Shown in pieces: positions 818 to 64,000 of a stretch of 64,000 nucleotides of DNA. A program made the position numbers and the translations under genes. Positions within the stretch are counted from its first letter, which is position 1; each line of letters opens with the position of its first letter. Source of the DNA: Escherichia coli (GTDB lineage Bacteria; Pseudomonadota; Gammaproteobacteria; Enterobacterales; Enterobacteriaceae); NCBI RefSeq assembly GCF_016026235.1, contig NZ_CP065613.1; one strand, 5' to 3'. Below the pieces are notes generated by a model. That model saw only the letters and a list, made by a program, of their open reading frames with translations. It had not been told where the DNA came from and ran no database searches.

Positions 818-1849
818 GTGATGATAATTTCTAAAAAACAGCTTATTGGGGTGGTAGCGATCGGTATTCTTTTGACTGGCGTTGTCTTTTTTATCTGGTG
901 GGTAAGCAAAGGAAGATTTATACAGACGACGGATGATGCTTACATTGGTGGTAATATCACCACGGTGGCAAGTAAAGTTTCTGGTTATATTTCTGCTATA
1001 GAGGTGCGCGATAATCAGAGCGTAAAAAAAGGCGATATTATCCTGCGTCTCGATGATCGGGATTATCGTGCAAATGTCGCCAGGCTTGAGGCAAAAATAA
1101 AAAGTAGCAAAGCCAATCTCGAAGGCATTCAAGCCACTATTGCGATGCAGCAGTCGATAATTCAAAGTGCCAGTGAAACATGGCAGGCAGTAAAACATGA
1201 GGAGCAAAAGCGCCTGCGAGATACTGAACGTTATGAAAAACTCGCACAATCAGCGGCAATATCGCAACAAATTATTGATAACGCCAGGTTTGACTACCAG
1301 CAGGTCGCAGCAAAGGAGCGCAAAGCCGCGAACGATTTCCTGGTGGAGAAGCAACGGCTGGCAGTTTTATCTGCTCAGGAAGAAAACGTACGTGCGAGTA
1401 TCGAAGAAGTTCAGGCCGCTTTGACTCAGGCACTACTGGATCTGGAATATACCCTTGTGCGTGCGCCGATTGATGGCATTGTCGCAAACCGCAGCGCCCA
1501 TACAGGCAGTTGGGTGGAAGGCGGCACATCGTTAGTTTCACTAGTACCAGTCAGTGAGTTGTGGGTTGATGCAAATTATAAAGAAAACCAAATAGCGGGA
1601 ATGAAGCCAGGAATGAAGGCTGAGATCCGTGCTGATATTCTCAAAGGGGAAGTGTTTCACGGTCACATTGAAAGCCTTTCCCCAGCGACAGGAGCCAGTT
1701 TCAGCTTGATTCCGATAGAAAATGCCACTGGCAATTTCACCAAAATTGTTCAGCGTGTCCCGGTACGGATTGCATTTGACGACGCAAAGGAATTAAAGCA
1801 ACTTCTTCGCCCGGGACTGTCCGTCACCGTCAGTGTTGATGAGAGATGA
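818..1849 (+). CDS. HlyD/EmrA-family membrane-fusion (periplasmic adaptor) protein
   Basis: 343-aa ORF with an N-terminal TM helix, a long coiled-coil middle and EmrA-like motifs (TDDAYIGGNITTVASKVSGYI, RAPIDGIVANR, NFTKIVQRVPVRI). ATGA start/stop overlap with the downstream MFS gene. Confidence 0.85.
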   Translation: MMIISKKQLIGVVAIGILLTGVVFFIWWVSKGRFIQTTDDAYIGGNITTVASKVSGYISAIEVRDNQSVKKGDIILRLDDRDYRANVARLEAKIKSSKANLEGIQATIAMQQSIIQSASETWQAVKHEEQKRLRDTERYEKLAQSAAISQQIIDNARFDYQQVAAKERKAANDFLVEKQRLAVLSAQEENVRASIEEVQAALTQALLDLEYTLVRAPIDGIVANRSAHTGSWVEGGTSLVSLVPVSELWVDANYKENQIAGMKPGMKAEIRADILKGEVFHGHIESLSPATGASFSLIPIENATGNFTKIVQRVPVRIAFDDAKELKQLLRPGLSVTVSVDER

Positions 1850-3359
1850 TGTCTATGCGTAAACATATTGCTTTCGCCAGTATGTGTATGGGATTATTTA
1901 TTGCTCAGCTTGATATTCAAATTGTATCGTCATCCCTAAATGAAATAGGTGGTGGTTTGTCCGCAGGTAAAGACGAAATGGCCTGGCTTCAGACCAGCTA
2001 TTTAATTGCTGAGATTATTGTTATTCCGCTCTCTGGGTGGCTGTCACGGGTATTTTCCACTCGTTGGCTTTTTACTCTATCCGCGGGAATATTTACTTTA
2101 ATGAGTATCGCGTGTGGACTTGCATGGAATATTCAGATCATGATTTTGTTTCGTGCTTTACAGGGAGCTGCTGGCGCATCCATGATCCCTTTAGTTTTCA
2201 CGACGGCGTTTATTTATTACCAGGGTAAAGAGTTGGGGTTGGCTGCTGCGGTAGTCAGTGCGCTGGCCTCACTGTCACCGACGCTAGGGCCAACTCTGGG
2301 GGGCTGGATCACTGATAACCTCGACTGGCGATGGCTATTTTATATCAATATATTACCTGGCATATATTTAGTTTTGAGTATTCCTTTTCTGGTTAATTTT
2401 GATAAACCTGATCTCTCTTTACTGAAAGTTGCTGATTATCCGAGTATTATCCTGTTGGCCATGACTCTGGGATGTCTGGAATATACCCTTGAAGAAGGAG
2501 CGCGCTGGGGATGGCTGGATGATAATACTATTTTGCTGACATCAGTTCTGGCATTGGTGAGTTTTATTTTATTTGCTGCGCGTACACTTACAATATCCAA
2601 TCCGATAATGGATCTTCATGCTTTTAAGGATAAAAATTTCACTCTGGGATGTTTTTTTTCTTTTTCTGGAGGGGTTGGGATATTCTCTACTGTATATTTA
2701 ATACCTGTGTTTTTGGGGCAGATTCGCGGATTAAATGCCGAAGAGATAGGTTTTGCCGTTTGCACAACAGGTATTTTCCAGTTATTTTCTGTTCCCTTTT
2801 ACTTCTGGTTAAGTAAAAAAATAAATCTGCGATGGCTGTTGATGGCGGGGCTGGGCGGATTTGTGTTTTCAATGTATCTTTTTACCCCTATAACCCACGA
2901 ATGGGGATGGCAGGAATTACTGTTTCCACAGGCAATTAGAGGGATTTCGCAGCAGTTTGCGATGGCCCCATCGTAACATTAACGCTAGGGGGAATTCCAA
3001 AAGAACGGCTGAAGTTAGCCTCTGGTGTATTTAATTTAACACGTAATCTTGGGGGCGCGATTGGTATTGCCCTGTGTGGCTCTATTCTCAATAATCGAAC
3101 TAATTTTCATTTTTCGCGAATGGGTGAAAAAATGGTTTCTGTTCCCCATACGGTGAATGACTTCATTTCCAGAAGTGCTTTATTTTTTAATCGCAGTGGA
3201 AGTGACCAGACATCGGAAATACTGGCTTCAACCAAATTATTGAGTCAATTGATGCTGAGGGAGGCGCAAACTATGGCATTTTCGGATACCTTTCTGCTAA
3301 TCAGTGGTCTGTTATTTATCGCATTTTTGTTGGTTCCTGCTATGAATAAATCATCCTGA
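1846..3359 (+). pseudogene. EmrB/QacA-type MFS efflux permease, disrupted by a frameshift
   Basis: Polytopic 376-aa ORF (1846-2976) ends at ...QQFAMAPS*. The protein continues in another frame from 2973 (VTLTLGGIPKERLKLASGVFNLTRNLGGAIGIALCG...) to the stop at 3359. Restoring one C in the C4 run at 2966-2969 joins the two frames. Confidence 0.8.
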
Positions 3360-8587: not shown

Positions 8588-9523
8588 TTATTTCACTTCA
8601 ACCACATTCAGCCGTAACTCATCCAACTGATTTTCATCTTCTTCTGGCTGCCAGCCCGCCGGTTGTAGTGGGATCTCTTCGCGATCAAACGCCAGATCAC
8701 CCCCGTTAACCACTTCAGAACCGTGGGTGATGCCTTTGAAATCGAACAGGTTGGTATCGCACAGATGCGACGGCACCACATTCTGCATCGCGCTGAACAT
8801 CGTCTCGATACGCCCTGGATAACGTTTATCCCAGTCCCGCAACATGTCAGCAATCACCTGACGTTGCAGGTTAGGCTGTGAACCGCACAGGTTGCACGGA
8901 ATAATCGGGAACGCTTTTGCATCGGCAAATCGCTGAATATCTTTCTCGCGGCAGTAGGCCAGCGGACGAATAACGATATGTTTGCCATCATCGCTCATCA
9001 GTTTCGGAGGCATACCTTTCATCTTGCCGCCGTAGAACATATTTAAGAACAACGTTTGCAGGATATCGTCACGATGGTGGCCCAACGCGATCTTCGTCGC
9101 CCCCAGTTCCGTTGCGGTGCGATAAAGGATACCGCGACGTAGCCGAGAACACAGTGAGCAAGTGGTTTTGCCCTCTGGAATCTTCTCTTTCACGATACCG
9201 TAAGTGTTCTCTTCAACAATCTTGTACTCAACGCCCAGCTTTTCAAGATACTCGGGCAGAACGTGTTCCGGGAAGCCCGGTTGCTTTTGATCGAGGTTAA
9301 CAGCCACCAGCGAAAAATTGATTGGCGCGCTTTGCTGCAAATTGCGCAGAATCTCCAGCATGGTATAGCTGTCTTTACCCCCGGAGAGGCAAACCATGAT
9401 GCGATCGCCTTCTTCAATCATATTGAAGTCAGCAATGGCTTCGCCCACGTTACGACGCAGACGTTTTTGTAATTTGTTCAGATTGTATTGTTCTTTCTTT
9501 GTAATTTGTTGATTTTCTTGCAT
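8588..9523 (-). CDS. ttcA: tRNA 2-thiocytidine(32) synthetase TtcA; first codons supplied by the prophage
   Basis: 311-aa [27 protein letters not shown]...CLSGGKDS (PP-loop). The att core covers roughly codons 9-17. Everything upstream of 9499, including the promoter, is prophage DNA. Confidence 0.92.
9474..9499. repeat. attL core (TTGTTCAGATTGTATTGTTCTTTCTT)
   Basis: Identical 26-mer at 57929-57954. The flanking sequences remain similar but diverged (ttcA 5' end versus the phage-borne mimic). Confidence 0.85.
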
Positions 9524-9547: not shown

Positions 9548-9566
9548 GGGGCAAATTGGGGGCAAA
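9548..9566 (+). repeat. Two direct GGGGCAAA motifs in the int-proximal att arm (candidate arm-type Int sites)
   Basis: GGGGCAAA at 9548-9555 and 9559-9566, between the ttcA start and the int stop. The same octamer recurs three times near attR. Confidence 0.4.
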
Positions 9567-9574
9567 CTTTGCAA

Positions 9575-10810
9575 CTACGATAACCGCGCATTCAACATGG
9601 CTATCTGTTCGTCGTTCATGTCATCAATCCACATACCGTAAATTTCATACACCATTTGCGCAGTTTCATGCCCCATCTGGCTGGCTATAAATGCCGGGTT
9701 CGCTCCTGCCGTCAACAGCCAGCAGGCAAAAGTATGTCGCGTATGGTACGGATTACGGCGGCGAATACCAGCACGTTTTACTGCTGCATTCCATCTCGCA
9801 CCCAAACTGCTTACCGAGTAATAAGGTTTCTGTTTTCCGTTACACATCCTGGGCATGAAAACAAAATGCAGTTTTTGCTTTTCGGTTCTGCCGTACTCCC
9901 GATGATAAAAAGTGATTTCGCTTTTGCGATGATGCCCGGTCAGTTTGTATTGCTCCTTCAGTGCTTCAAGAGCTGGCTGTAGTAATGTTACCGTCCGGAT
10001 CCCGGCATTTGTTTTTGGGGGACCGAACATATCAAGTATCGTCAGGTTTCTTCTGACATTCACAATTCCCTTCTCGAAATCCACATCCTCCCACGCCAGA
10101 GCTGCCAGTTCCCCGTGACGAAGCCCGGAGTAAACGGCAAATTTCCACAAGTTTTGGCTCTGTCCTTTTTCACTTTCCATTAATGCATTGAATTCTGTTT
10201 TAGATAACGGGTCAGGCTTTATTCTGTTTCGCTGTAATTTTTTTACTCCTTCAAATGGTTTGGTTGATATAAATCCCGACTGATACGCAAAACGTAACAG
10301 CGAACAGAGCAGGGCGATATAGTTATCAACTGTGCGCACGGTTCTTCCTTTTTTGTTGGATCTTGGATTATCCAGGTAAAGCGTTTCTCCATGCAGCAGT
10401 TCATTCCGGTAGTTTAAGATATCGCTATAACGAATATATGATATCGGGGTACTTTCACAAATTATTATTCTGAGTGTTTTTAATTGTGATTTCGTTTTCT
10501 TCATTGTGTTTGTTGTTAACTCTGTCTCTTTAATTTTTGTCCAGATATCACAAAGCTCCCCGAACGTTTTTATGACTCTCGTTGTCACCATTTTTGCCCC
10601 AGTGCTGGACTGGGGAAAACGTCTTAAATACTCAAATTCACCGGAGTTTATTTCATGAACTATCAGCGCTCTTAAATTTCCGGCCTTTTTAATATTACTG
10701 TTTGTAATCTCCCAGCCTTTTAATGTTTCCCGACATCGTTTTCCTCGAAACATGAACCAGATGCGAATGTTTCTACCTCTAATCTCGACACCTGTTGGTA
10801 ATTTAGACAT
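9575..10810 (-). CDS. intR: Tyrosine integrase, Rac IntR-like
   Basis: 411-aa ORF MSKLPTGVEIRGRNIRIWFMFRGKRCRETL... with a C-terminal catalytic region (HGELAALAWEDV, HTRHTFACWLL, MGHETAQMVYEIYG). Adjacent to attL. Confidence 0.88.
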   Translation of the reverse strand: MSKLPTGVEIRGRNIRIWFMFRGKRCRETLKGWEITNSNIKKAGNLRALIVHEINSGEFEYLRRFPQSSTGAKMVTTRVIKTFGELCDIWTKIKETELTTNTMKKTKSQLKTLRIIICESTPISYIRYSDILNYRNELLHGETLYLDNPRSNKKGRTVRTVDNYIALLCSLLRFAYQSGFISTKPFEGVKKLQRNRIKPDPLSKTEFNALMESEKGQSQNLWKFAVYSGLRHGELAALAWEDVDFEKGIVNVRRNLTILDMFGPPKTNAGIRTVTLLQPALEALKEQYKLTGHHRKSEITFYHREYGRTEKQKLHFVFMPRMCNGKQKPYYSVSSLGARWNAAVKRAGIRRRNPYHTRHTFACWLLTAGANPAFIASQMGHETAQMVYEIYGMWIDDMNDEQIAMLNARLS

Positions 10811-51244: not shown

Positions 51245-51267
51245 TTGCAGAAAAGCGAGAGGTAATT

Positions 51268-51867
51268 ATGCGTAAACTTTATGCCGCCATTTTGTCCGCA
51301 GCCATTTGTCTGGCCGTATCCGGTGCGCCTGCATGGGCATCTGAACATCAGTCCACGCTGAGCGCGGGGTATCTTCATGCCTCGACGAACGTTCCCGGCA
51401 GCGATGATCTTAACGGGATTAACGTGAAATACCGTTATGAGTTTACGGACACACTGGGGCTGGTGACGTCATTCAGCTATGCAGGAGACAAGAATCGCCA
51501 GCTTACCCGTTACAGCGATACCCGCTGGCATGAAGATTCCGTGCGTAACCGCTGGTTCAGCGTGATGGTGGGGCCGTCTGTGCGCGTGAATGAATGGTTC
51601 AGCGCGTATGCGATGGCGGGTATGGCTTACAGCCGTGTGTCGACTTTCTCCGGGGATTATCTCCGCGTAACTGACAACAAGGGGAAAACGCACGACGTGC
51701 TGACCGGAAGTGATGACGGTCGCCACAGCAACACGTCTCTGGCGTGGGGAGCTGGCGTGCAGTTTAACCCGACCGAATCCGTGGCCATTGACCTTGCTTA
51801 TGAAGGTTCCGGCAGTGGCGACTGGCGCACTGACGGTTTCATCGTGGGTGTCGGTTATAAGTTCTGA
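51268..51867 (+). CDS. lom: Lom-like outer-membrane beta-barrel protein (Ail/Lom/PagC family)
   Basis: 199 aa with signal peptide ..AVSGAPAWA and a terminal ..[10 protein letters not shown]. Confidence 0.88.
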
Positions 51868-51893
51868 TTAGCCAGGTAACACAGTGTTATGAC

Positions 51894-51919
51894 AGCCCGC
51901 TGGTTCAGGCGGGCTTTTT
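51894..51919 (+). terminator. Intrinsic terminator after lom
   Basis: AGCCCGCTGGTTCAGGCGGGCTTTTT. Confidence 0.75.
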
Positions 51920-51930
51920 GTGGGGTGAAT

Positions 51931-53343
51931 ATGGCAGTAAAGATTTCAGGTGTACTGAAAGATGGGGCGGGTAAACCTGTCGTAAATTGTGCGATTGAAC
52001 TGCGGGCCAGAAGAACCAGTCCGACCGTTGTGGCACACGTTGTTGCCACTTGCGTGACGGACAATAACGGTGCTTATGTGATTGAGGCTGAGCCGGGGTA
52101 TTACGAGGTTGCGCTTCACTGTAACGGCTGGCAGCCAACCCGTGTCGGGGATATTGATGTGGCACCGACTGATGCACCGGGGACACTGAACGCGTTTCTG
52201 AATGCACCAAAGGATGGTGATTTACGTCCGGAGGTGATGAAGCGCTTTGAGGAAATGGTGGCGCAGGCGCAGCAGAGTGCCGGGGCTGCAGCCGGAAACG
52301 CACAGCAGACGGCGCAGAATGTGGCGGCAGCCGCAACGGCCCGTGATGATGCACAACGTTTTGCGGAGAATGCCAGACAGGATGCAGTTGCCACTGCAGA
52401 GGACAGAAAGGCCACTGCGGAAGACGTGAAAAGCACGGGGAAAAACGCCGTCTTATCCGGTCAGCGTGCACAGGCAGCCGCAGGTTATGCCCGCGCAGCA
52501 GAACAGGCCAAAAATGACATTGATGCTGCGCTGACCGGCACTCTGAAAACGGCTAACCATCTGTCAGAAATCGCAGCAGCAGGCGAAAAGGCACAACAGA
52601 AGTCCCGGGATAATCTGGGGCTGAAAAGTGCGGCCACGATGGAAGCACAGAGCGACATTTACGACCGGACAAAAGGCCGTCTGGCGATACCCGGCGCATT
52701 CGGCTTTGGGTGTGCTTTTCTGCCTGAAGATGTTATCCGTTTTGACACTAAGAGTGATTTCCTGGCCTGGGTAAGGAATGCGCTGCCAGGTGAGTATTCC
52801 GTTGCTGGCCGCCTGGGCATCATACCCGACACACGGTTTGAAGGGGTGCTCAGCATCCGGTGGACTGATGCACGCCCTGAGACAACAGAACCGCGGTACA
52901 GAGCCAAATCCCTTACTTTTTACGGCATTAACGGCCCCATTTATCACACCCGCTACTGCTACTGGCCCATATCCAGACTGACTGACTGGGTGAAAATAAA
53001 TATAACCACAGAAGATATTATTTACAGAATCGTGGCGAGCTCTGTCTGCAACAGATGGGGAGACCCTGACATTGGCGGGCTGATTATTGCTGCGTACCAG
53101 GGAGAAGCTGACGGTGATAAAGTCATCAGACTTGTCAGGGGGCAGTCATACAGAGGCTCACGACTGGGACCGGTGGGGATTTCAGTGCCCAGTACTCCCA
53201 CCGGAACGCATATAGCATACCCACAATTTTTCATTACGGGATGTTCAGAGCATTCATTACCGGGGTCATATTGCGCCCTGTCCGGGGTGCCGGATGCACA
53301 TGTCTCTGGCGCAATGCCCGGGCTTTTTATTCGCACATCGTGA
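51931..53343 (+). CDS. Side tail fibre (Stf-like) with a divergent C-terminal domain
   Basis: N-terminus MAVKISGVLKDGAGKPVVNCAIELRARRTS.. matches the remembered lambda Stf/orf-401. Ala/Gln-rich coiled middle. The last ~230 aa are unrecognised. Confidence 0.8.
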   Translation: MAVKISGVLKDGAGKPVVNCAIELRARRTSPTVVAHVVATCVTDNNGAYVIEAEPGYYEVALHCNGWQPTRVGDIDVAPTDAPGTLNAFLNAPKDGDLRPEVMKRFEEMVAQAQQSAGAAAGNAQQTAQNVAAAATARDDAQRFAENARQDAVATAEDRKATAEDVKSTGKNAVLSGQRAQAAAGYARAAEQAKNDIDAALTGTLKTANHLSEIAAAGEKAQQKSRDNLGLKSAATMEAQSDIYDRTKGRLAIPGAFGFGCAFLPEDVIRFDTKSDFLAWVRNALPGEYSVAGRLGIIPDTRFEGVLSIRWTDARPETTEPRYRAKSLTFYGINGPIYHTRYCYWPISRLTDWVKINITTEDIIYRIVASSVCNRWGDPDIGGLIIAAYQGEADGDKVIRLVRGQSYRGSRLGPVGISVPSTPTGTHIAYPQFFITGCSEHSLPGSYCALSGVPDAHVSGAMPGLFIRTS

Positions 53344-53353
53344 GGAATGCACC

Positions 53354-53917
53354 GTGGAAATTAAAAAAATCATTAATCCCCGTTATACCGAAAGTGGCGC
53401 AGTAGACTGTGACGTTTTTTTTGACGACAGGGACCAGGCAGTTCCCTACACAGCCACCGCTGATGATGTCGCACCGACGGGTCAGCAAATCTGGCAGGAA
53501 CTGCAAAGTGGCAAATGGGGTGAGATAGCCCCATTCACTGTGACACCAGAAATGCTGGAAGCGGCCAGAGAGGCCAGACGTCAGGAAATTGAAGCATGGC
53601 GCGCAGAACAGGAGGCGAAGCCGTTCACGTTTGAATGGAACGGTCGTATCTGGAATGCTGGTCCCGACTCACTGGGCCGCCTGTCCCCGGTAGTCATGCT
53701 GGCAAAATCTGTCACAGCACAAACACATATGGCGTGGAGCGATGCCGATAATCAGCAGGTGAAACTGTCGATGCCGGAACTGGAAGAACTGGCGGCAGCA
53801 ATGGTGCAGGCGCAGGTCGATCGCAACGATGAGATTTATCGCCGTCAGCGGGAGCTGAAGGAAGAGCTGAATAGTCTGAAGGATTTGAATTCGGTTAGGA
53901 ATTTTATCGTGGAATAA
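53354..53917 (+). CDS. Tail fibre assembly/chaperone-like protein
   Basis: GTG start after GAGGAA; 187 aa. Assigned by its position after stf and a C-terminal coiled coil (..ELEELAAAMVQAQVDRNDEIYRRQRELKEEL). Confidence 0.55.
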   Translation: MEIKKIINPRYTESGAVDCDVFFDDRDQAVPYTATADDVAPTGQQIWQELQSGKWGEIAPFTVTPEMLEAAREARRQEIEAWRAEQEAKPFTFEWNGRIWNAGPDSLGRLSPVVMLAKSVTAQTHMAWSDADNQQVKLSMPELEELAAAMVQAQVDRNDEIYRRQRELKEELNSLKDLNSVRNFIVE

Positions 53918-54117
53918 CAGAAGCTGCGGCACGTCGTATGCAGGAACGTGCCGCGGTTGGCTGGTAAACTTTCGATAGTGCGAGTATTGAATGATTTCTA
54001 GGCGTTATCGATTTTACGTATTTTTTGCATGATAGAATTCGTACCTCCTCCCAACGACCTTCCATGGCTTTCCGGACTTCTGTAGGCTGGCGGACGATGC
54101 TGTCCTCGGATGTTGTG

Positions 54118-54975
54118 CTAATTGGGTGATAACAGATCCTGTGTATGGGCGTTTCCCTTTGTGCGTGCGTTGATGCTGGTAACGGTAAACGTCATGATGA
54201 ACACGACCGCGAATAAGACGACAATCGTCGGAGCTGGTGCGCTGTCGATAAAAAAGGACAGCCAGACACCAGTCATTGACACTATTACCGATATGCCAGT
54301 CGCCAGTAGGAGCGCAATATGAAAGCGTTGTGTCAGGAGTACTGCAATGGCGCCAGGCGCAATGAGCAGAGAAATAGAGAGAATGATACCTACTGCTTTC
54401 AGCGTCGCCACAATGGTCAGGGAAACCATGCACAGCAGCCCATAATGCAGCCATCTCGTATGCAAACCGCTTACCTGCGCCTGTTGATAATCAAAGCTGA
54501 ACAGCAAAAAATCCCGCCATTTTACGCTAATAACAAGTGTAACCAGCCCGGCAATAATCACCGTCTGGATTATATCGCCGATGGTTATCCCGAGCATGTC
54601 GCCGAAAAGAATATGGTCAAGATGTACGTCTGGTTTGATTGCAATATACAAGATCAGACCTGCGGCAAACATGCCAGAAAAAACAATCCCCATAACTGTA
54701 TCTTGCTTGATTCGGCTGTTGTCTTTCAGGTATCCCGTCGCCACCGCGCAGAATACTCCGGCGACGAATGCCCCTGTAGCCAGAGGTAACCCCAGAATCC
54801 AGGTAAGCACGATGCCAGGAAAAACCGCATGACTCATCGCGTCACCCATCAGTGCCCAACCTTTCAGGACCAGAAAGACCGACAGCAGCGCACAGGGTAT
54901 GGAAACTACCAGTGAAATCAGCAGTGCGTGACTCATAAAGGTGAACTGCAGTGGCTCCAGTAATAATGCCATCAT
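54118..54975 (-). CDS. sitD: Mn/Fe ABC transporter permease SitD
   Basis: 285-aa polytopic ABC-3 family permease, last gene of a four-gene operon with overlapping starts and stops. Confidence 0.88.
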   Translation of the reverse strand: MMALLLEPLQFTFMSHALLISLVVSIPCALLSVFLVLKGWALMGDAMSHAVFPGIVLTWILGLPLATGAFVAGVFCAVATGYLKDNSRIKQDTVMGIVFSGMFAAGLILYIAIKPDVHLDHILFGDMLGITIGDIIQTVIIAGLVTLVISVKWRDFLLFSFDYQQAQVSGLHTRWLHYGLLCMVSLTIVATLKAVGIILSISLLIAPGAIAVLLTQRFHIALLLATGISVIVSMTGVWLSFFIDSAPAPTIVVLFAVVFIMTFTVTSINARTKGNAHTQDLLSPN

Positions 54976-55829
54976 GAGCGATCCTCCAGCGCTTTATGCG
55001 CACGCCGACGATTTGCCAAAAGTCCATGGGTGGGCGCAAATACAAATGCTAAAAGAAACAGCAGTGTCTGCGCCACCACGATGATTCCACCTGTCGCGCC
55101 GTCCAGAAAGTAACTGACCCACGCGCCGAGGAAACTGGTTACACTGCCAATAGTTACAGCAATTATGAGCAGGCGGGGAAAACGATCGGTTAACAACCAT
55201 GCTGTTGCACCGGGAGTCACCACCAGACAGATCACCAGAAAGGCACCAACCGTTTGCAGCGCCGCAACGGTCGAAACCGACAGCAGGGTGAAGAAGAGGA
55301 TTTTTAATCTGCCCGGATGTAATCCAATAGCACGGGCGTGATTCTCGTCGAAAAAGGTCACCATAAGATCTTTCCATTTGAAAAAAAGCACGATGATCGA
55401 GAGAATGCCAATGATAGTGAGTTGCAGGATATCCGCCGGATCGATTGCCAGAATATTGCCCAGGACGATGGTCTGAATGTTCACGGATGTCGGGTTCAAT
55501 GACACCATAAACAGCCCCAGGCCAAAAAAGGACGAGAAGATCAGGCCGATGATGGCATCTTCTTTTAAGCGGGTGCGTTGGTTAAGAAACAGCATGCTGC
55601 CCGCTGCCAGTCCGCCGGAAAAGAAGGCTCCCAGAGAAAACGGAAGCCCCAGCATATATGCCCCCGCAACACCCGGGACAATAGAGTGCGACAGCGCATC
55701 GCCAATCAGCGACCAGCCTTTTAGCATCAGATAGCATGACAGGAAAGCGCAGAGACCGCCGACCATTGCCGAGACCCACATCGCATTGAGCATATATTCA
55801 TAGCTGAAGGGTTCCAGTAGCACGTTCAT
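54972..55829 (-). CDS. sitC: Mn/Fe ABC transporter permease SitC
   Basis: 285-aa ABC-3 family permease. Confidence 0.88.
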
Positions 55830-56653
55830 CTTGCTTCCCTCTGCACCGCTGACGGTCGATGTGCCACAAAAGGGCGTTCATCGTCAGTAATAATGCTTTC
55901 TTCCGAGCCGTTAAGTGTGACATGGCGCAGTACGCCGCTAAAAGCCAGCTCCAGGTTCTCGGCTGTAAAAGTGGTGTCTGTCGGCCCGCTTGCCAGGACG
56001 GTGCCTTTGACCATGACCGTATAATCGCAAAATGTCGTGACTGAGCCGAGATTGTGCGTTGAGACAAGCATCGTTTTGCCTTCCGCGCGTAACTCCCTCA
56101 ACAGGCTGATGATTTTCGCTTCGGTTTTCACATCAACGCCGGTAAAAGGTTCATCCAGCAGGATCACATCACCCTGCTGTGCAATCGCTCTCGCCAGAAA
56201 GACGCGTTTCTTTTGTCCACCGGAAAGCTCGCCGATTTGACGATGGCGAAAATCCACCATATCGACACGTTCCAGCGCATCGGTGACAATCTGACGATCC
56301 CTCTTTTTGGCTATACGCAACATACCCATATGCCCATAGCGGCCCATCATCACCACATCTTCCACCAGTACAGGAAATGACCAGTCAACCTCTTCTGACT
56401 GAGGGACGTAGGCAACCAGGTTTTTCTGTAGCGCCTGTCGCGTGGGAATACCCAGAACAGATATCTTTCCGCTGGTCAGACGCACAAATCCCATAATCGC
56501 TTTAAACAACGTCGATTTTCCGGAACCGTTTACCCCAACCAGAGCGGCAATAGATCCACTTGGTACTGTGAAGGATGCATCGCGCAGTGCTGTGTGCCCG
56601 TTACGCCAGGTGACAGTAACATCATTAACGACAATGCCTGCAGATTGCATCAT
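55826..56653 (-). CDS. sitB: Mn/Fe ABC transporter ATPase SitB
   Basis: 275 aa with Walker [10 protein letters not shown], signature LSGGQKKR and Walker B ILLDEP. Confidence 0.9.
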
Positions 56654-57567
56654 TATTTCTCCCTTTTCCCGGCTTTAATTCCCTGTACCAGCGTACTGGT
56701 AGTAACCTTAAGAAGGTCGATATACGTAGGTACCGGGCCGTTTTCTGTGCTCAGGGAATCGACATAGAGCACACCGCCGTAGTGTGCGCCGGTTTCACGC
56801 GCAACCTGACGCGCTGGTTTATCGGAAATCGTACTCTCGCTAAAGACTGCCGGGATATGATTTTTCTTAACTATATCAACAACCTTACGTACCTGCTGCG
56901 GTGTTCCTTGTTGATCGGCATTAATCGGCCACAGATAAAGCTCTTTTAGCCCCAAATCGCGTGCGAGATAAGAAAAAGCCCCTTCACTGGTGACCATCCA
57001 TCGCTGATTCTCAGGGAGTTCCGTAATCTGCTTACGCAGGGGGGCAAGGGTTTGGGTAATCTTGGCTTTATAAGTATCGGCATTACGTTGGTAGGTTTGT
57101 GCATTTGCCGGATCGTATTTTATCAACGCATCACGAATATTATCGACGTAAATCAGAGCATTATCTGGCGACATCCATGCATGGGGATTAGGTTTGCCCT
57201 CATAGGGTCCTTCGGTGATCCCTACTGGCGTCACACCCGAAGAGACAATTACTTCTGGAACCCCATTGAGATGCTGGTAAAAGCGTTGGAACCACAATTC
57301 CAGATTCATACCATTGGCGAGAATCAGTTGTGCCCCCTGCGCACGTTTAATATCGCCAGGGGTAGGCTGATACTCATGAATTTCTGCACCAGGCTTGGTT
57401 ATGGATGAGACTTCTGCAGCATCTCCAGCCACGTTTTTGGCCATATCCGCGATGATGGTAAATGTTGTAATGACCTTGAATTTTTCAGTTGCACTTGCCT
57501 GAAATGCGATCGAGCAGGTGAGGGCGAGGCACCCCAAGAGCATGGTTACTTTTTTTATTGAGTGCAT
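56653..57567 (-). CDS. sitA: Periplasmic Mn/Fe-binding protein SitA (cluster A-I SBP)
   Basis: 304 aa with a signal peptide; ZnuA/PsaA-type fold motifs (..[10 protein letters not shown].., ..NPHAWMSP..). Confidence 0.9.
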
Positions 57568-57599
57568 AATTTAGTACCTATAGTGAGCAAAATTAGAAC

Positions 57600-57621
57600 A
57601 AACATAGCAACGGCTATGTTT
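57600..57621 (-). promoter_or_regulatory. MntR box upstream of sitA
   Basis: Perfect palindrome AAACATAGC-CGTT-GCTATGTTT, the same half-sites as the remembered E. coli mntH MntR site. Confidence 0.75.
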
Positions 57622-57640
57622 TATAGCATAACCTATACAA

Positions 57641-57659
57641 AATGAAAATAATTATCATT
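57641..57659 (-). promoter_or_regulatory. Fur box upstream of sitA
   Basis: Minus strand AATGATAATTATTTTCATT against the consensus GATAATGATAATCATTATC. Confidence 0.65.
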
Positions 57660-57785
57660 AACAGCTTTGAGGCCTAAAACAGGGATTAGGTTGTTTCCTG
57701 CTGGCGACATGATATTGAGGAAAAAAGTAGAGCAGCTATTAGGCTTTGAAATGACTTTATGAGGAAAATTGTTGATGGCAAAAAT

Positions 57786-57823
57786 GGGGCAAAACGCTGT
57801 AGAAGGGGCAAAAAAGGGGCAAA
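57786..57823 (+). repeat. Three direct GGGGCAAA motifs in the attR-proximal arm
   Basis: GGGGCAAA at 57786-57793, 57805-57812 and 57816-57823, plus an inverted GGGCAAAAA at 57916-57924 next to the core. Confidence 0.4.
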
Positions 57824-57924
57824 AAAAGAGTGGGTTATCGTAGCTTATTGTTGTCGCTGATAATGTTTAACATATTGAAAAATAAATAAAATACTTATGA
57901 GTCAGATAGTTGTGATTTTTGCCC

Positions 57925-57978
57925 TTACTTGTTCAGATTGTATTGTTCTTTCTTGCTAATTTCTTGATTTTGCGACAT
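57925..57978 (-). pseudogene. ttcC: Displaced original 5' end of ttcA (ttcC-like remnant)
   Basis: Minus strand ATGTCGCAAAATCAAGAAATTAGCAAGAAAGAACAATACAATCTGAACAAGTAA = [17 protein letters not shown]. Compare the TtcA N-terminus [17 protein letters not shown]. Confidence 0.8.
57929..57954. repeat. attR core (TTGTTCAGATTGTATTGTTCTTTCTT)
   Basis: Identical to 9474-9499. Confidence 0.85.
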
Positions 57979-58121
57979 TTAAAAGCGACTCAATTCGTTA
58001 TATGGCATCAGAAGAGTATGCGTCATGCCGGAACGCCCAGCATAAGAAATCTGATATAAAAACTGTGGCGTGTATGGTACGGATTAGAGGGGAAAATGTC
58101 AGCACATTTGCGAAATGAATC

Positions 58122-58146
58122 AAAAAGCCCGCAGCAATGTGCGGGC
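58122..58146 (-). terminator. Intrinsic terminator after uspF
   Basis: Minus strand GCCCGCACATTGCTGCGGGCTTTTT. Confidence 0.75.
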
Positions 58147-58153
58147 GTTAGTG

Positions 58154-58669
<516 letters not shown>

Positions 58670-58695
58670 TTAGATCAAAGGAGGAAGAATAAGCA

Positions 58696-58719
58696 GAAAA
58701 AGCCCGCCATAACAGCGGG
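58696..58719 (-). terminator. Intrinsic terminator after ompN
   Basis: Minus strand GCCCGCTGTTATGGCGGGCTTTTT. Confidence 0.75.
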
Positions 58720-58728
58720 CAGGAGGAT

Positions 58729-59862
58729 TTAGAACTGATAAACCAGACCTAAAGCGACAATATCATCGGTAGAGATGCCGTTGGCAGCGTAGAAACTGTC
58801 ATCTTCATCCAACAGGTTGATTTTATAGTCAACATAAGTGGACATGTTTTTATTGAAATAGTAAGTCGCGCCAACATCGGCGTATTTAACCAGATCTTTA
58901 TCATCAACACCTGCCGGGTTGTCTGCACCACCGGCAGCGTGCAGGTCACGGCCTTTAGACATCAGGAAAGAGACTGCCGGACGCAGACCAAAATCAAACT
59001 GGTACTGTGCAGTGACTTCAAAGTTCTGGGTTTTGTTTGCAACAGCATAATCGCTGTCGCCAAACGGGGTCATATTACGCGTTTCTGAATACATGGTTGC
59101 CAAGTAAATATTGTTAGCATCGTATTTTAGCCCAGCAGTCCACGCGTCTGCTTTATCACCACCCGCCGCAGTATGGTTAACCTGGTCATTGGTGCGGTCA
59201 GAAGAGGTGTATGCCGCACCAGCGCTAAAGCCCATGCCTAAATCATATGTTGTGGAAAGACCCCAGCCGTCACCGTTTTCATGGCGAACATCACGTCCGT
59301 TGTTGGTGCCTTCCTGACCATTACTGGCACCTTCGTTGTTACCTTGATACTGCACCGCGAAGTTCAGACCATTTACCAGACCGAAGAAATCAGTATTACG
59401 ATAAGTCGCGACGCCATTGGCACGACCAGTCATAAAGTTGTCTGCATTGGTATAAGAGTCACCGCCAAATTCAGGCAGCATATCGGTCCAGCCTTCGATG
59501 TCGTACATTACGCCATAATTACGTCCGTAATCGAAAGAACCGTAATCTGAAAATTTCAGTCCGGCAAATGCCAGACGGGTCCATGACTGGTTTTTTGAAG
59601 ATTCAGTGTTGTTTGCCTGAATATTGTATTCCCATTGACCGTAGCCAGTAAGTTGATCGTTAATTTGGGTTTCGCCTTTAAAACCCAGACGCGCATAGCT
59701 CTGGTCGCCATCTTTCGCTGAATTATCAGAAAAATAATGCAGGCCATCAACTTTGCCATACAGATCTAATTTGTTGCCGTCTTTATTATAAACTTCGGCT
59801 GCATGTGCAGCACCTGCGCCGAGCAGGGCAGGAATTAAAAGTGCCAGTACTTTGCTTTTCAT
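58729..59862 (-). CDS. ompN: Outer-membrane porin OmpN
   Basis: 377 aa with signal peptide [21 protein letters not shown], general porin motifs and a terminal ..LGLVYQF. Confidence 0.9.
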
Positions 59863-60089
59863 TGAATAAATCCTTTAGTTATTTTATTTGCCTTTTATCC
59901 CCATTTCGGGGAGTGAAAACATCCTAAAGGAGAAGTTCAGTTAGCCGATAAATATCATTTGTTACGCCTTAAGTAAAACCTTAATCAAAAAATTCCTCTG
60001 AAATGATAATAAGTCTGGTGAATGTATCGAAGATAATACATACAAAATAAAAATTATACTTTTAATTTTCTATACGTTATTCTGCGCGG

Positions 60090-60198
60090 GTTATATGCCT
60101 TTATTGTCACAGATTTTATTTTCTGTTGGGCCATTGCATTGCCACTGATTTTCCAACATATAAAAAGACAAGCCCGAACAGTCGTCTGGGCTTTTTTT
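60090..60198 (+). ncRNA. micC: MicC small RNA
   Basis: GTTATATGCCTTTATTGTCACAGATTTTATTTTCTGTTGGGCCATTGCATTGCCACTGATTTTCCAACATATAAAAAGACAAGCCCGAACAGTCGTCTGGGCTTTTTTT matches the remembered K-12 MicC. Located in the ompN-ydbK intergenic region. Confidence 0.9.
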
Positions 60199-60227
60199 TA
60201 GAATTGGATAATCCTTATCCAGAGCAT

Positions 60228-63200
60228 TTAATCGGTGTTGCTTTTTTCCGCTTTTCCGGCCATTTGTGCCAGGAAGTCATAGCGTTTTTGCAAATCAGCT
60301 GCAGCATCTTTCCATAACTGTTCTGCCACTTCTGGCTGCTGAGAATTCAGACGACGGAAACGTTGCTCGTGAAGTAACGTTTCTTCCAGTGCTTCTGACG
60401 GCGGGCGTGAATCCAGCGCCAGCGGCAGTTTGCCTTCATCGGCACGACGCGGATCGAAGCGATATAGCGGCCAGAAGCCGGTAGCTGTGAGTTGGCGCAT
60501 CTGGTCATGGCTGAGTGCCAGATCGTAACCATGCTCTTCACACGGGCTATAAGCAATGATCAGCGATGGTCCCGGATACGCTTCCGCTTCCTGAATCGCT
60601 TTCACCGTCTGGTTCAGTTGCGCGCCGAGAGAAATCTGCGCCACATAAACATGACCGTACATCATCATACTGACGCCAAGATCTTTACGCGCTTTACGTT
60701 TGCCGTGCTCGCCAAATTTAGTTACTGCACCCAGCGGTGTCGCTTTCGACGCCTGACCACCGGTGTTGGAATAGCATTGCGTATCCAGCACCAGAATGTT
60801 GACGTTTTCCGTCAAACTCAATACATGATCCAGACCGCCAAAGCCGATATCGTAAGCCCAGCCGTCGCCACCAATCAGCCAGATTGATTTTTCTACCAGT
60901 GCATCTGCGTCACGCAGCAGTTCATGTGCTTCGGCAACATCGTTGAGTTGCTGGCGTAAAGCTGCAACCTGTTCACGACGAACCTCTGGCGTGGCGTCTG
61001 ATTTCAACGCAGTCAGTAATTCCGCCGGGATTTTATCGGCAAATTGATCCAGCAGACGCAGCACGCGGACACGGTGTTGATCGACCGTCAGGCGGAAACC
61101 AAGGCCAAATTCGGCATTATCTTCAAATAGAGAGTTCGCCCATGCCGGCCCACGACCGTTGGCATCGGTGGTATACGGTGTAGAGGGCAGGTTACCGCCA
61201 TAAATTGAAGAACAGCCGGTGGCGTTAGCGATCAACATCCGGTCGCCATAGAGCTGAGTCAGCAATTTAATATACGGCGTCTCGCCACAACCGGAGCAAG
61301 CACCGGAATATTCAAACAGCGGTGTAATCAGCTGCGATGTACGAATATCAATACGTTCCAGTTTGCTACGGTCGATTTCTGGCAGGTTGAGGAAGAAATC
61401 GTAATTGATTTTCTCTTCTTCGACATGTTCCAGGCGCGACATCATATTGATGGCTTTAATCTCTGGATTCTGACGGTCTTTCGCCGGGCAAACTTCGACG
61501 CACAGGTTACAACCGGTGCAATCTTCCGGAGCCACCTGCAAGACATATTTCTGCCCGCGCATATCACGCGATTTCACATCCAGCGAATGCAGGCTGGCAG
61601 GGGCGTTTTCCATCGCTTCAGGCGGTACCACTTTTGCGCGAATAGCTGAGTGTGGGCAAGCGGCGACGCAGTGGTTACATTGGGTACAGAGTTCCTCTTT
61701 CCAGATGGGGATCTCTTCGGCGATATTGCGTTTTTCCCAGCGAGTGGTGCCCATCGGCCAGGTGCCGTCTGGCGGCAGCGCCGAAACGGGGAGGGCATCA
61801 CCAAGCCCGGCGAGCATCGCAGCGGTTACGGTTTTCACGAAATCAGGGGCGGCATCGGAAACCACTGGCGGTCGATTGGCGCTGTGCGGATTTACCGGTT
61901 GCAACGGAACTTCTTCTACGGATTCACGCGCCAGCGCCAGAGCCTGCCAGTTGCGTTCCACCAGATCCTGACCTTTGCTGCTGTAACTTTTGGCAATCGC
62001 ACCCTGCAATTCTGCGAGGGCGCTATCGCCAGGCAGAATTTGTGTCAGATGGAAAAAAGCCATCTGCATGACGGTATTAATACGGGCCGCCAGGCCACAT
62101 TCGCGGGCGATTTTCGCCGCGTTAATCACATAGAAGCGCGCTTTTTTCTGATTTAGCACGGCCTGAACTTCCTGCGGCAAGCGCGACCACACTTCATCTG
62201 CGCTGTACGGCGTGTTGAGCAGGAAAATGCCGCCAGGTTTTAAACGCTCAGCCATCTGATATTTATCGATAAACTGCAACTGGTGGCAGCCAACAAAATC
62301 AGCCTGGGAAATGAGATAAGCGGAACGAATCGGCTGTTCGCTCACGCGAAGGTGAGAAACCGTCAGGCCGCCCGCCTTTTTGGAGTCGTAAACAAAATAG
62401 CCCTGTGCGTACCACGGCGTGGAATTACCGATAATCTTGATATTGTTTTTGGTCGCGGAAACGCTGCCATCACTACCAAGGCCATAAAACAAGGCTTCCA
62501 GTTTCGCCGAGTTTGGCAGGGTGTTTTCCGGCAACGGCAGTGACAGATTGGTCACATCATCGTAAATACCAACCGTAAAGCGCGCTTTCGGTTTAGCCGC
62601 GTTGAGCTCGGCAAATACCGCCAGTACACAGTCCGGGCCAAATTCTTTGGATGAAAGACCATAGCGCCCACCAATGATACGGGGCAGAGTTTCGCGCTCG
62701 CCATTATTAAAGGCTTCTGCCAGTGCGGTCATTACATCCAGATAGAGCGGTTCTGCCTGGGCACTGGGTTCTTTGGTTCTGTCCAGTACCGCCACGCTGC
62801 GTACGGATCCCGGCAGAGCTTGCAGCAAGTGTTTGGCGGAGAAGGGACGGTACAGGCGAACTTTCAGCACGCCAACTTTTTCGCCACGGGTTAGCAATTC
62901 ATCAACCACTTCTTCACAGGTGCCAATGGCAGAGCCCATCAGGATAATCACCCGTTCCGCTTGCGGATGCCCGTAATATTCAAACGGCTGATACTGACGA
63001 CCTGTCGCGGCAGAGAAATCATTCATCGCCTGTTCAACATGGTCATAGACCGCGTTGTACCATGGGTTGGTGGCTTCGCGAGACTGGAAATAAGTGTCAG
63101 GATTCGCGGACGTACCGCGGATCACCGGATGTTCCGGGTTGAGTGCCCGGGCGCGATGAGCATCAATTTCGGCCTGCGGCATGAGATCAAGAATCGTGTC

Positions 63201-63752
63201 ATCGGCCAGCGGGACAATTTTGTTGATTTCGTGGGACGTGCGGAAACCATCAAAGAAATGAATAAATGGCACGCGGCTCTTCAGCGTCGCGATGTGCGAA
63301 ATGAGAGCAAAGTCTTGCGCTTCCTGGACGTTTGCTGCACACAACATCGCGCAACCCGTCTGGCGCACCGCCATGACGTCGGAATGATCGCCAAAAATAG
63401 AGAGTGCATGTGTGGCAACGGTACGTGCCGCTACATGCAGGACAAACGGTGTGAGTTCGCCTGCCAGTTTGTACAGCGTCGGGATCATCAGCAGCAAACC
63501 CTGCGATGACGTAAACGATGTTGAAAGGGCACCCGTCTGCAAAGCGCCATGCACGGTAGCGATAGCACCCGCTTCCGACTGCATTTCAACCACGCGTGGT
63601 GTGTCTCCCCAAACGTTCTTCAAGCCGTTTCCGGCCCAGGCATCAGCCTGTTCTGCCATCGTGGAACTGGGGGTAATAGGGTAGATGGCGATAACTTCAC
63701 TGGTGCGAAACGCCACCGAAGCAACCGCGCCATTACCGTCAATAGTAATCAT
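60228..63752 (-). CDS. ydbK: Pyruvate:flavodoxin/ferredoxin oxidoreductase YdbK (NifJ-like)
   Basis: Intact 1174-aa ORF with two 4Fe-4S ferredoxin motifs (CTQCNHCVAACP, CTGCNLCVEVCP) and a TPP-binding C-terminal domain (GGDGWAYDIG). Confidence 0.93.
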   Translation of the reverse strand: MITIDGNGAVASVAFRTSEVIAIYPITPSSTMAEQADAWAGNGLKNVWGDTPRVVEMQSEAGAIATVHGALQTGALSTSFTSSQGLLLMIPTLYKLAGELTPFVLHVAARTVATHALSIFGDHSDVMAVRQTGCAMLCAANVQEAQDFALISHIATLKSRVPFIHFFDGFRTSHEINKIVPLADDTILDLMPQAEIDAHRARALNPEHPVIRGTSANPDTYFQSREATNPWYNAVYDHVEQAMNDFSAATGRQYQPFEYYGHPQAERVIILMGSAIGTCEEVVDELLTRGEKVGVLKVRLYRPFSAKHLLQALPGSVRSVAVLDRTKEPSAQAEPLYLDVMTALAEAFNNGERETLPRIIGGRYGLSSKEFGPDCVLAVFAELNAAKPKARFTVGIYDDVTNLSLPLPENTLPNSAKLEALFYGLGSDGSVSATKNNIKIIGNSTPWYAQGYFVYDSKKAGGLTVSHLRVSEQPIRSAYLISQADFVGCHQLQFIDKYQMAERLKPGGIFLLNTPYSADEVWSRLPQEVQAVLNQKKARFYVINAAKIARECGLAARINTVMQMAFFHLTQILPGDSALAELQGAIAKSYSSKGQDLVERNWQALALARESVEEVPLQPVNPHSANRPPVVSDAAPDFVKTVTAAMLAGLGDALPVSALPPDGTWPMGTTRWEKRNIAEEIPIWKEELCTQCNHCVAACPHSAIRAKVVPPEAMENAPASLHSLDVKSRDMRGQKYVLQVAPEDCTGCNLCVEVCPAKDRQNPEIKAINMMSRLEHVEEEKINYDFFLNLPEIDRSKLERIDIRTSQLITPLFEYSGACSGCGETPYIKLLTQLYGDRMLIANATGCSSIYGGNLPSTPYTTDANGRGPAWANSLFEDNAEFGLGFRLTVDQHRVRVLRLLDQFADKIPAELLTALKSDATPEVRREQVAALRQQLNDVAEAHELLRDADALVEKSIWLIGGDGWAYDIGFGGLDHVLSLTENVNILVLDTQCYSNTGGQASKATPLGAVTKFGEHGKRKARKDLGVSMMMYGHVYVAQISLGAQLNQTVKAIQEAEAYPGPSLIIAYSPCEEHGYDLALSHDQMRQLTATGFWPLYRFDPRRADEGKLPLALDSRPPSEALEETLLHEQRFRRLNSQQPEVAEQLWKDAAADLQKRYDFLAQMAGKAEKSNTD

Positions 63753-64000
63753 ATGACACCCTTACATTGCGCAAATGAGGGGCGCACGAAATTGCTGCGC
63801 GCCCAGTAGTAATCCTTCAATTTTAGCAAATGGCTTTCTTCTGCATTTTCGCTTTTGTGTCCCCCACATCAGCGTAATGAATGTTTTGATCAAACAGAGG
63901 GCAAAAAAATAGCCATAAAAAAGTAAAAATGCGGGGCAACGCGCAGGACAGCTCTCGACGCCGCCCTCTGTGCTGCCTATTATTTATGGCGGTGTCGTTT

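Follow-up and report, generated by a model that had tools for sequence, protein, structure and literature searches.

A sitABCD metal-uptake cassette within a Rac-type prophage at ttcA of Escherichia coli

The DNA considered here is a stretch of 64,000 nucleotides from Escherichia coli (contig NZ_CP065613.1, assembly GCF_016026235.1; hereafter the window), in which a Rac-type prophage of roughly 48 kb, spanning 9474-57954, is integrated in ttcA and holds within its borders the four genes of the manganese and iron uptake operon sitABCD. We propose, with a probability of about 0.9, that this decayed prophage carries sitABCD as a mobile cassette equipped with its own promoter under Fur and MntR control.

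In this arrangement, an accessory cassette of 3.7 kb fills the brief non-coding interval that separates the last of the tail-fibre genes from attP, the equivalent of the "b region" of phage lambda, and contains sitABCD in full, along with about 190 bp of the promoter region native to the operon. SitA is predicted to bind Mn2+ or Fe2+ in the periplasm, SitC and SitD to form the channel, and SitB to hydrolyse ATP. Transcription would start from the operon's own promoter and run antiparallel to the phage late operon, with iron-loaded Fur and manganese-loaded MntR shutting sit off when metal is plentiful and releasing it under metal limitation or oxidative stress, a control that would be independent of the state of the phage repressor. 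The cassette probably spreads on temperate phages and through recombination between mosaic phage genomes, and it is seen with ttcA-type and icd-type integration modules as well as on ColV-type plasmids. The prophage of the window is probably past particle production, which would make its sit operon effectively a fixed chromosomal fitness gene.

Borders of the element at ttcA

The anatomy and boundaries of the element can be read directly from the window and its alignments. An att core of 26 bp, TTGTTCAGATTGTATTGTTCTTTCTT, occurs as an exact direct repeat at 9474-9499 and 57929-57954, and the annotated att site of phage Rac-SA53 is likewise 26 bp long and equivalently placed. The element thus has what defines a Rac-type prophage at its ends, namely a tyrosine integrase beside ttcA and an att core duplicated at both extremities. 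The features that mark the borders are as follows.

8588-9523, minus strand: ttcA, whose 5′ end holds the attL core and whose replacement start codon, at 9523, comes from the phage side
9474-9499: attL core, 26 bp, an exact copy of the attR core within the 5′ coding end of ttcA
9548-9566, plus strand: two GGGGCAAA repeats adjoining attL, candidate arm-type integrase sites (repeat count)
9575-10810, minus strand: intR, an intact Rac-type tyrosine integrase of 411 amino acids (open reading frame list; DNA match to phage integrase regions)
57778-57928: right-hand phage att arm, with GGGGCAAA at 57786, 57805 and 57816 (alignment with K-12 Rac and Rac-SA53)
57929-57954: attR core (exact repeat; alignments of empty-site genomes begin at 57929)
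57955-57978, minus strand: displaced original 5′ end of ttcA, with its ATG at 57978-57976, corresponding to the K-12 pseudogene ttcC (sequence; K-12 annotation)

Both arms have close relatives among phages. The segment 9474-10810, which comprises the att core, the left arm and intR, shares 96-98% DNA identity with Rac-SA53 and four other phage records, and the gene homologous to the integrase is annotated as intR in E. coli O121. For the 150 bp of the right arm (57778-57928), identity is 98% with the right end of K-12 Rac and 96% with Rac-SA53. The repeat GGGGCAAA occurs nine times in the 64 kb, where 3.2 copies would be expected, and five of the nine, all on one strand, belong to the two att arms.

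To the right of attR, the ttcA start remnant is followed by uspF, ompN and ydbK in the order found in K-12. In E. coli genomes whose site is empty, the alignment to the window starts exactly at 57929, with ttcA joined to the uspF side and sit absent. Since an att core lies to the right of sit and the empty-site genomes align only from that core onwards, the operon is inside the integrated element. An earlier sequence-only reading of the window had placed sit within the element rather than in the flanking chromosome, and the phage arm between sit and attR, together with the junction at 57929, bears it out. For annotation, this means that the prophage ends at 57954 and not at its tail-fibre genes, and that sit belongs to it.

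Integration has also altered ttcA. The homology between the two att regions reaches past the 26-bp core (9500-9523 and 57955-57978), and the new ttcA start with its first eight codons (MQENQQIT...) comes from the phage, which presumably gives the gene a new promoter as well. The original start (MSQNQEIS...) survives at attR, cut off from the gene, as 17 codons that correspond to ttcC in K-12.

The sit cassette and its predicted metal-responsive operators

Four open reading frames that overlap or abut one another on the minus strand (54118-57567) make up the sit operon, beyond the end of the late operon.

51889-53343, plus strand: tail-fibre protein with a prophage tail-fibre N-terminal domain, 484 amino acids (PF08400, 163 bits)
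53294-53917, plus strand: last open reading frame of the late operon, a DUF4376 tail-fibre-associated protein of 207 amino acids (PF14301; annotation, neighbours)
53922-53958: GC-rich hairpin that immediately follows the late operon and lies some 160 nt downstream of sitD (-27.4 kcal/mol, z = -4.1, computed for the plus strand)
54005-57777, minus strand: sit cassette, an insert relative to the sit-less Rac-SA53, with 54098-57764 as the core common with phage 21 (alignments)
54118-54975, minus strand: sitD, permease, 285 amino acids (open reading frame list, RefSeq length match, Pfam)
54972-55829, minus strand: sitC, permease, 285 amino acids (open reading frame list, RefSeq length match, Pfam)
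55826-56653, minus strand: sitB, ATPase, 275 amino acids (open reading frame list, RefSeq length match, Pfam, NF011630 above cut-off)
56653-57567, minus strand: sitA, periplasmic binding protein, 304 amino acids (open reading frame list, RefSeq length match, Pfam)

The operon is complete and intact. Over 53918-57954, the window and E. coli O121 201805972, where the sitABCD locus is annotated, are 100% identical at the DNA level and have genes of equal length, and each product carries its Pfam domain over the whole length (ZnuA, PF01297, in SitA; ABC_tran, PF00005, in SitB; ABC-3, PF00950, in SitC and SitD). SitB scores 594 bits against the NCBIfam equivalog for manganese/iron ATPases, NF011630, whose cut-off is 393. 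A binding protein, an ATPase and two permeases, all of full length, constitute an importer of the SitABCD/YfeABCD type, and transport of Mn2+ and Fe2+ by the window proteins is likely by analogy with homologues from Shigella, avian pathogenic E. coli (APEC) and Salmonella (PMC3852070). That the four genes are whole, and that they run antiparallel to the late operon, had been noted from the letters alone, and both observations hold.

A direct comparison of phages with and without sit defines the cassette. In Rac-SA53, the last tail-fibre gene, the hairpin and the start of the spacer align to 53340-54004 and the att arm aligns from 57778, leaving 75 bp where the window has the 3,773 bp of 54005-57777. 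K-12 Rac also has the hairpin, 37 bp from its att arm. Because Rac-SA53 has 75 bp in this place, these alignments make sit an insert, placed in the short spacer that runs from the tail-fibre genes to attP. It lies within a phage genome, between the att sites, and is present in some phages and absent from others that are otherwise collinear (Rac-SA53 and K-12 Rac), so it would be dispensable for the phage. By a rough extrapolation from an evenly spaced sample of matches, about one quarter of the genomes with a Rac att arm at uspF carry sit. The description of sit as cargo in a classic moron position, offered by the sequence-only reading, is therefore well supported, with the same place and orientation recurring in phage records that include phage 21 and Perceval.

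Other details of that description needed correction. The gene ending at 53917 had been called a tail fibre assembly gene; its end is right, but it encodes a DUF4376 protein that follows a protein with a tail-fibre N-terminal domain, and not a canonical Caudo_TAP product. A jump in GC content (guanine plus cytosine), which had been suggested as a check at the cassette edges, appears at neither edge of the window's GC profile, where sit has 47-56% GC, like its flanks, and the promoter and att region 34-40%; the profile is thus uninformative on a foreign origin. Insertion sequence (IS) elements or their scars are likewise absent from the cassette edges in the window.

The hairpin at 53922-53958, conserved in K-12 Rac and Rac-SA53, may act as a bidirectional terminator, though a clear U tract is lacking. 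In Rfam, 53900-53955 on the plus strand matches CssrB (RF02799), a small RNA encoded on the Shigella chromosome, with 30 bits, below the gathering threshold of 76; the match runs over the last part of the DUF4376 gene and the hairpin, and the hairpin alone is probably its cause.

Upstream of sitA lie three elements with which the operon could answer to the metal supply of the host.

57600-57621: MntR-box palindrome AAACATAGC-N4-GCTATGTTT, 33-54 nt upstream of the sitA ATG (perfect match)
57620-57648, minus strand: candidate sigma-70 promoter, with -35 TTTTCA (57648-57643), a 17-nt spacer and -10 TATAAA (57625-57620) (by eye)
57644-57662, minus strand: Fur box GTTAATGATAATTATTTTC, matching the 19-bp consensus at 16 of 19 positions, 77-95 nt upstream of the sitA ATG (consensus scan)

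The palindrome, with AACG as the four bases between its halves (AAACATAGC-AACG-GCTATGTTT), is the sole match in the window when up to three mismatches are allowed (0.04 expected), and the Fur box is likewise the only one (0.01 expected). A perfect and unique MntR palindrome at these very positions had been reported before; a Fur-box-like site had been reported too, at 57641-57659, and while its presence is confirmed at 16 of 19 positions, those coordinates are 3 nt out of register. Host control of sit by metals would follow from the layout, because the Fur box overlaps the likely -35 element and the MntR palindrome the likely -10. Regulation of the window copy by both repressors is thus suggested by its sequence and by analogy with published work on Shigella and Salmonella; a review describes repression of sit by MntR and Fur in Salmonella and Shigella (S. 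flexneri) and a contribution of sit to virulence (PMC3852070). A general promoter and terminator scan was discarded, as it did no better in its counts than with shuffled sequence; the likely sit promoter escaped it, and it called the MntR palindrome a "terminator".

Conservation of both regulatory sites can be observed directly. Among 17 other E. coli copies from phages, prophages and plasmids, the MntR box is identical in 14, the Fur box differs by none to two changes, and the two boxes stand 44 nt apart in all but one, a ColV-type plasmid copy (L009, NZ_CP160109.1) with a spacing of 42 nt. This plasmid copy also has two mismatches in the right half of the palindrome (AAACATAGCAACTACTATGTTT), and its regulation by manganese may be weakened. 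Beyond E. coli, we compared 20 chromosomal sit loci of other Enterobacterales, taken from the matches listed in a SitA search of species-representative genomes, with no E. coli or Shigella among them. In all 20, an ATAGC-N4-GCTA core precedes sitA by 41-82 nt, often accompanied by an AT-rich box resembling a Fur site at a distance of about 95 nt upstream. Because the operators occur at the same place upstream of these chromosomal operons, the comparison indicates that they are ancestral parts of the operon that travelled with sit.

Distribution, decay and alternative histories

The distribution of the cassette was counted directly. The sit region is found in 2,335 of 5,426 complete E. coli genomes, 492 of which have the sitA-attR-uspF junction of the window, combined with diverse tail modules of mosaic make-up, of which several look intact; in other E. 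coli genomes sit stands at the icd site, adjoining tail-fibre genes in the same layout. Plasmids offer more than 1,000 places with sit, typically by aerobactin genes and IS fragments, and coverage of the region reaches 80% or more in 1,013 plasmid records. The same coverage is reached by 27 phage records, phage 21 and Perceval included. A chimeric ttcA and sit query found no case, among the 5,426 complete genomes, of sitD within about 3.2 kb of the ttcA att core. The sequence-only reading had pointed to sit at the ttcA-uspF site without prophage remnants as the arrangement that would speak against it; with none among these genomes, it stands.

Around the junction, we observed that the right end formed by the DUF4376 gene, sitDCBA, attR and uspF is joined to baseplate-type tails (Baseplate_J, Phage_Wedge1, sheath initiator) in loci L092 (CP125938) and L093 (CP065611), while the same DUF4376-sit-uspF end stands behind lambda-like siphovirus tails in L094 and L097-L099. 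As judged from these sequences, this shows mosaic exchange around a constant right-end module.

Decay of the prophage was assessed against the proteins of an intact relative in E. coli LH85-a, which itself has sit at uspF. Compared with these homologues, 6 of 19 virion genes are frame-switched (terS, terL, portal, protease/capsid, tape measure and gpJ) and the 13 other structural genes are whole. The apparent breakage of many structural genes had been remarked on before, and six of the 19 tested are indeed frameshifted. Because the host genes and sit are intact, the frameshifts look like decay and not sequencing noise. The complete virion gene set of a Rac-type phage is therefore lacking, although the integrase remains full length, and the window prophage is unlikely to form particles on its own. 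The nearest locus found, JAALAC010000002, is 99.98% identical over 51262-63917, and gpJ and the tape measure gene are intact there.

Several points weigh against our proposal. The -35 and -10 hexamers were picked out by eye and are absent from the output of the consensus scan, whose rule needs a T at position 6 of the -10 element; regulation of this copy is predicted from its sequence. No convincing intrinsic terminator lies in the cassette, whose shared block extends about 20 bp past the sitD stop, and GC content gives no sign of foreign origin. Among 25 listed phage records with sit, only that of Salmonella phage SPF_0923 reaches a ttcA-type att arm, and this record includes flanking host genes, while Rac-SA53, the sole phage record with a ttcA-type integrase whose right end was inspected, is without sit. 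Phage records accordingly speak for transfer of sit in virions by the icd/21 type, and for the ttcA type, including past mobility of the window copy, we infer it.

These points have to be set against the other histories that the locus could have had. If sit were ancestral chromosomal DNA beside uspF, with the prophage integrated next to it, one would understand why the operon is the last feature before the chromosome and why its GC content resembles that of the host. The att core, however, lies to the right of sit with the phage att arm between them, the empty-site genomes fuse ttcA to uspF from 57929 without the operon, and sit was never found near ttcA minus prophage DNA in the complete E. 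coli genomes. Moreover, the 20 chromosomal loci of other Enterobacterales have no ttcA, uspF, intR or window tail-fibre genes within 8 kb. The empty-site and att-arm comparisons refute this history, and we regard its probability as negligible. A later entry of sit into a resident, already decaying prophage, from a ColV-type plasmid or through IS-mediated recombination and without ever being packaged with a ttcA-type phage, would fit the abundance of sit on plasmids and the scarcity of ttcA-type phage records that carry it. The occurrence of a short segment (S, described below) on opposite sides of sit in two phage types also implies recombination around the cassette. Yet the cassette edges show no IS or scars, the same junctions recur in the 492 genomes across varied tail modules, several apparently intact, the position equals that in records of icd-type phage genomes, and the one plasmid copy studied shows greater divergence (97%) and a damaged MntR box, which together make such an entry very improbable.

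The origin of the cassette itself is a separate matter. It could have been born by aberrant excision, as in specialised transduction, from a chromosome where sit adjoined an att site, followed by exchange of modules among phages; a spot beside attP is typical for such pick-ups, and the operon came with its native promoter and operators. Against this, an intact att arm separates sit from the core, so that the event would not have happened at the att site of the window, and none of the 20 chromosomal loci adjoins ttcA, uspF or an integrase. We give this route a low though appreciable probability, and since it concerns origin only, it is compatible with the carriage of sit as a phage-borne cassette that we favour. 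The ends of the sit block, for their part, are nearly equal (about 54098 and 57764) in three unrelated settings, the spacer of ttcA-type phages, the b region of icd-type phages and ColV plasmids. This could mean that sit moves as a discrete unit through an unrecognised, site-preferring recombination, beyond ordinary mosaic exchange among phages, which seems to us unlikely.

Segment S, of 127 bp, was observed at 53945-54071 of the window, at 9656-9781 of phage 21 (locus L003) and at 10100-10225 of locus L007, with about 81% identity. It lies downstream of sitD in the window and upstream of sitA in phage 21 and the icd-site prophage, with the cassette ends unchanged. Within it lie the 3′ half of the hairpin that follows the tail-fibre genes and a small open reading frame (MQKIRK...), which is frameshifted in the window and annotated in phage 21 as the hypothetical gene CPT_21_29.

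A junction in plasmid pAPEC-O2-ColV (locus L091, NC_007675.1, 4001-7932) was also considered. Here, sit is followed by an intact ttcA-type attP, with right arm, core and left arm, and by the last 14 codons of intR, which is the configuration of an excised phage. If real, it would be a record of excised phage DNA captured by a virulence plasmid. The junction is the one case among 72,556 plasmids, and the record continues directly behind it with a stretch of N and a pGEM-T polylinker; we set it aside as evidence of capture, as it may be a chimera of assembly or gap closure.

On the far left of the window, outside the prophage, open reading frames of 343 and 376 amino acids (818-2976, plus strand) lie upstream of smrA. 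This flank differs from that of the E. coli O121 genome, which has an IS1-interrupted abgR there.

Comparison with known systems

What the sequence-only reading proposed is covered throughout by published work or deposited annotations, among them the carriage of sit by phages, the Fur box upstream of it, its expression in lysogens and its role in virulence. In 2020, Mathieu et al. found sitABCD on 70% of the lambda-type phages from infant-gut E. coli, each time with a Fur box upstream of sit, and classed the operon among the morons (PMC6969025). In 2023, Misson et al. reported that, in the LF82 lysogen, transcription of the Perceval sit genes exceeds the prophage background 4-13 fold (PMC9928086). 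Our literature search found no paper that joins phage 21 with sitABCD.

Phage 21 (OL657228), Perceval of the adherent-invasive E. coli (AIEC) strain LF82 (OV696612) and the ev/Lambda_* phages of the infant gut carry the same 3.67-kb cassette, with 98% DNA identity over 54098-57764. As in the window, sit in phages of the phage 21 type is flanked by the tail-fibre genes and attP and reads against the direction of the late operon. In phage 21, which came from a Paris sewer in the 1950s, the order is tail fibre, two small open reading frames, sitDCBA in antiparallel orientation, a spacer, icd′ with attP, and int. The MntR box of phage 21 and of the icd-type prophage copies is identical to that of the window, and the Fur box differs by one or two bases. 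The window departs from this type in its ttcA/Rac-type integration module, used in place of the icd-type one, in having segment S on the other side of sit, and in its six frameshifted virion genes.

For the integration module, the closest relatives are K-12 Rac and Rac-SA53 (KU052037), which share with the window the type of integrase, the 26-bp att core in ttcA, the right arm and ttcC. At the position of sit, by contrast, K-12 Rac has pinR, ynaE and ynaM, and Rac-SA53 its 75-bp spacer.

The "PAI sit" of Shigella flexneri, enteroinvasive E. coli (EIEC) and E. coli is a sitABCD island with phage-derived and IS sequences, prone to rearrangement (Fisher et al. 2009, per PMC7545054), and the same review places it at several chromosomal sites in Shigella and E. 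coli, where recombination makes it unstable (PMC7545054). Among the closest DNA matches to the sit region of the window are O121 and other human isolates with IS-riddled remnants. Four insertion clusters are said to have been distinguished for this island by Fisher et al. in 2009.

More distant relatives keep the plan of the operon. The sitABCD operons of Salmonella (SPI-1, Salmonella pathogenicity island 1) and other Enterobacterales, and yfeABCD of Yersinia, have the same four-gene architecture with an MntR-type palindrome and an AT-rich Fur-like box upstream of sitA, whereas their SitA proteins are only 74-86% identical to that of the window. ColV and ColBM plasmids such as pAPEC-O2-ColV bear the same cassette at about 97% identity, and differ from the window in that sit is flanked there by IS1 and Tn3 fragments and by aerobactin genes and, in the one copy examined, has an MntR box with two mismatches.

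Set beside these systems, the window copy adds only its integration module, of the ttcA/Rac type, and opens no new question. It is of use in tracing the spread of sit among E. coli, Shigella and ColV plasmids, and offers a clear example of a metal-uptake fitness factor, probably regulated by the host, that is carried by a temperate phage and outlives it.

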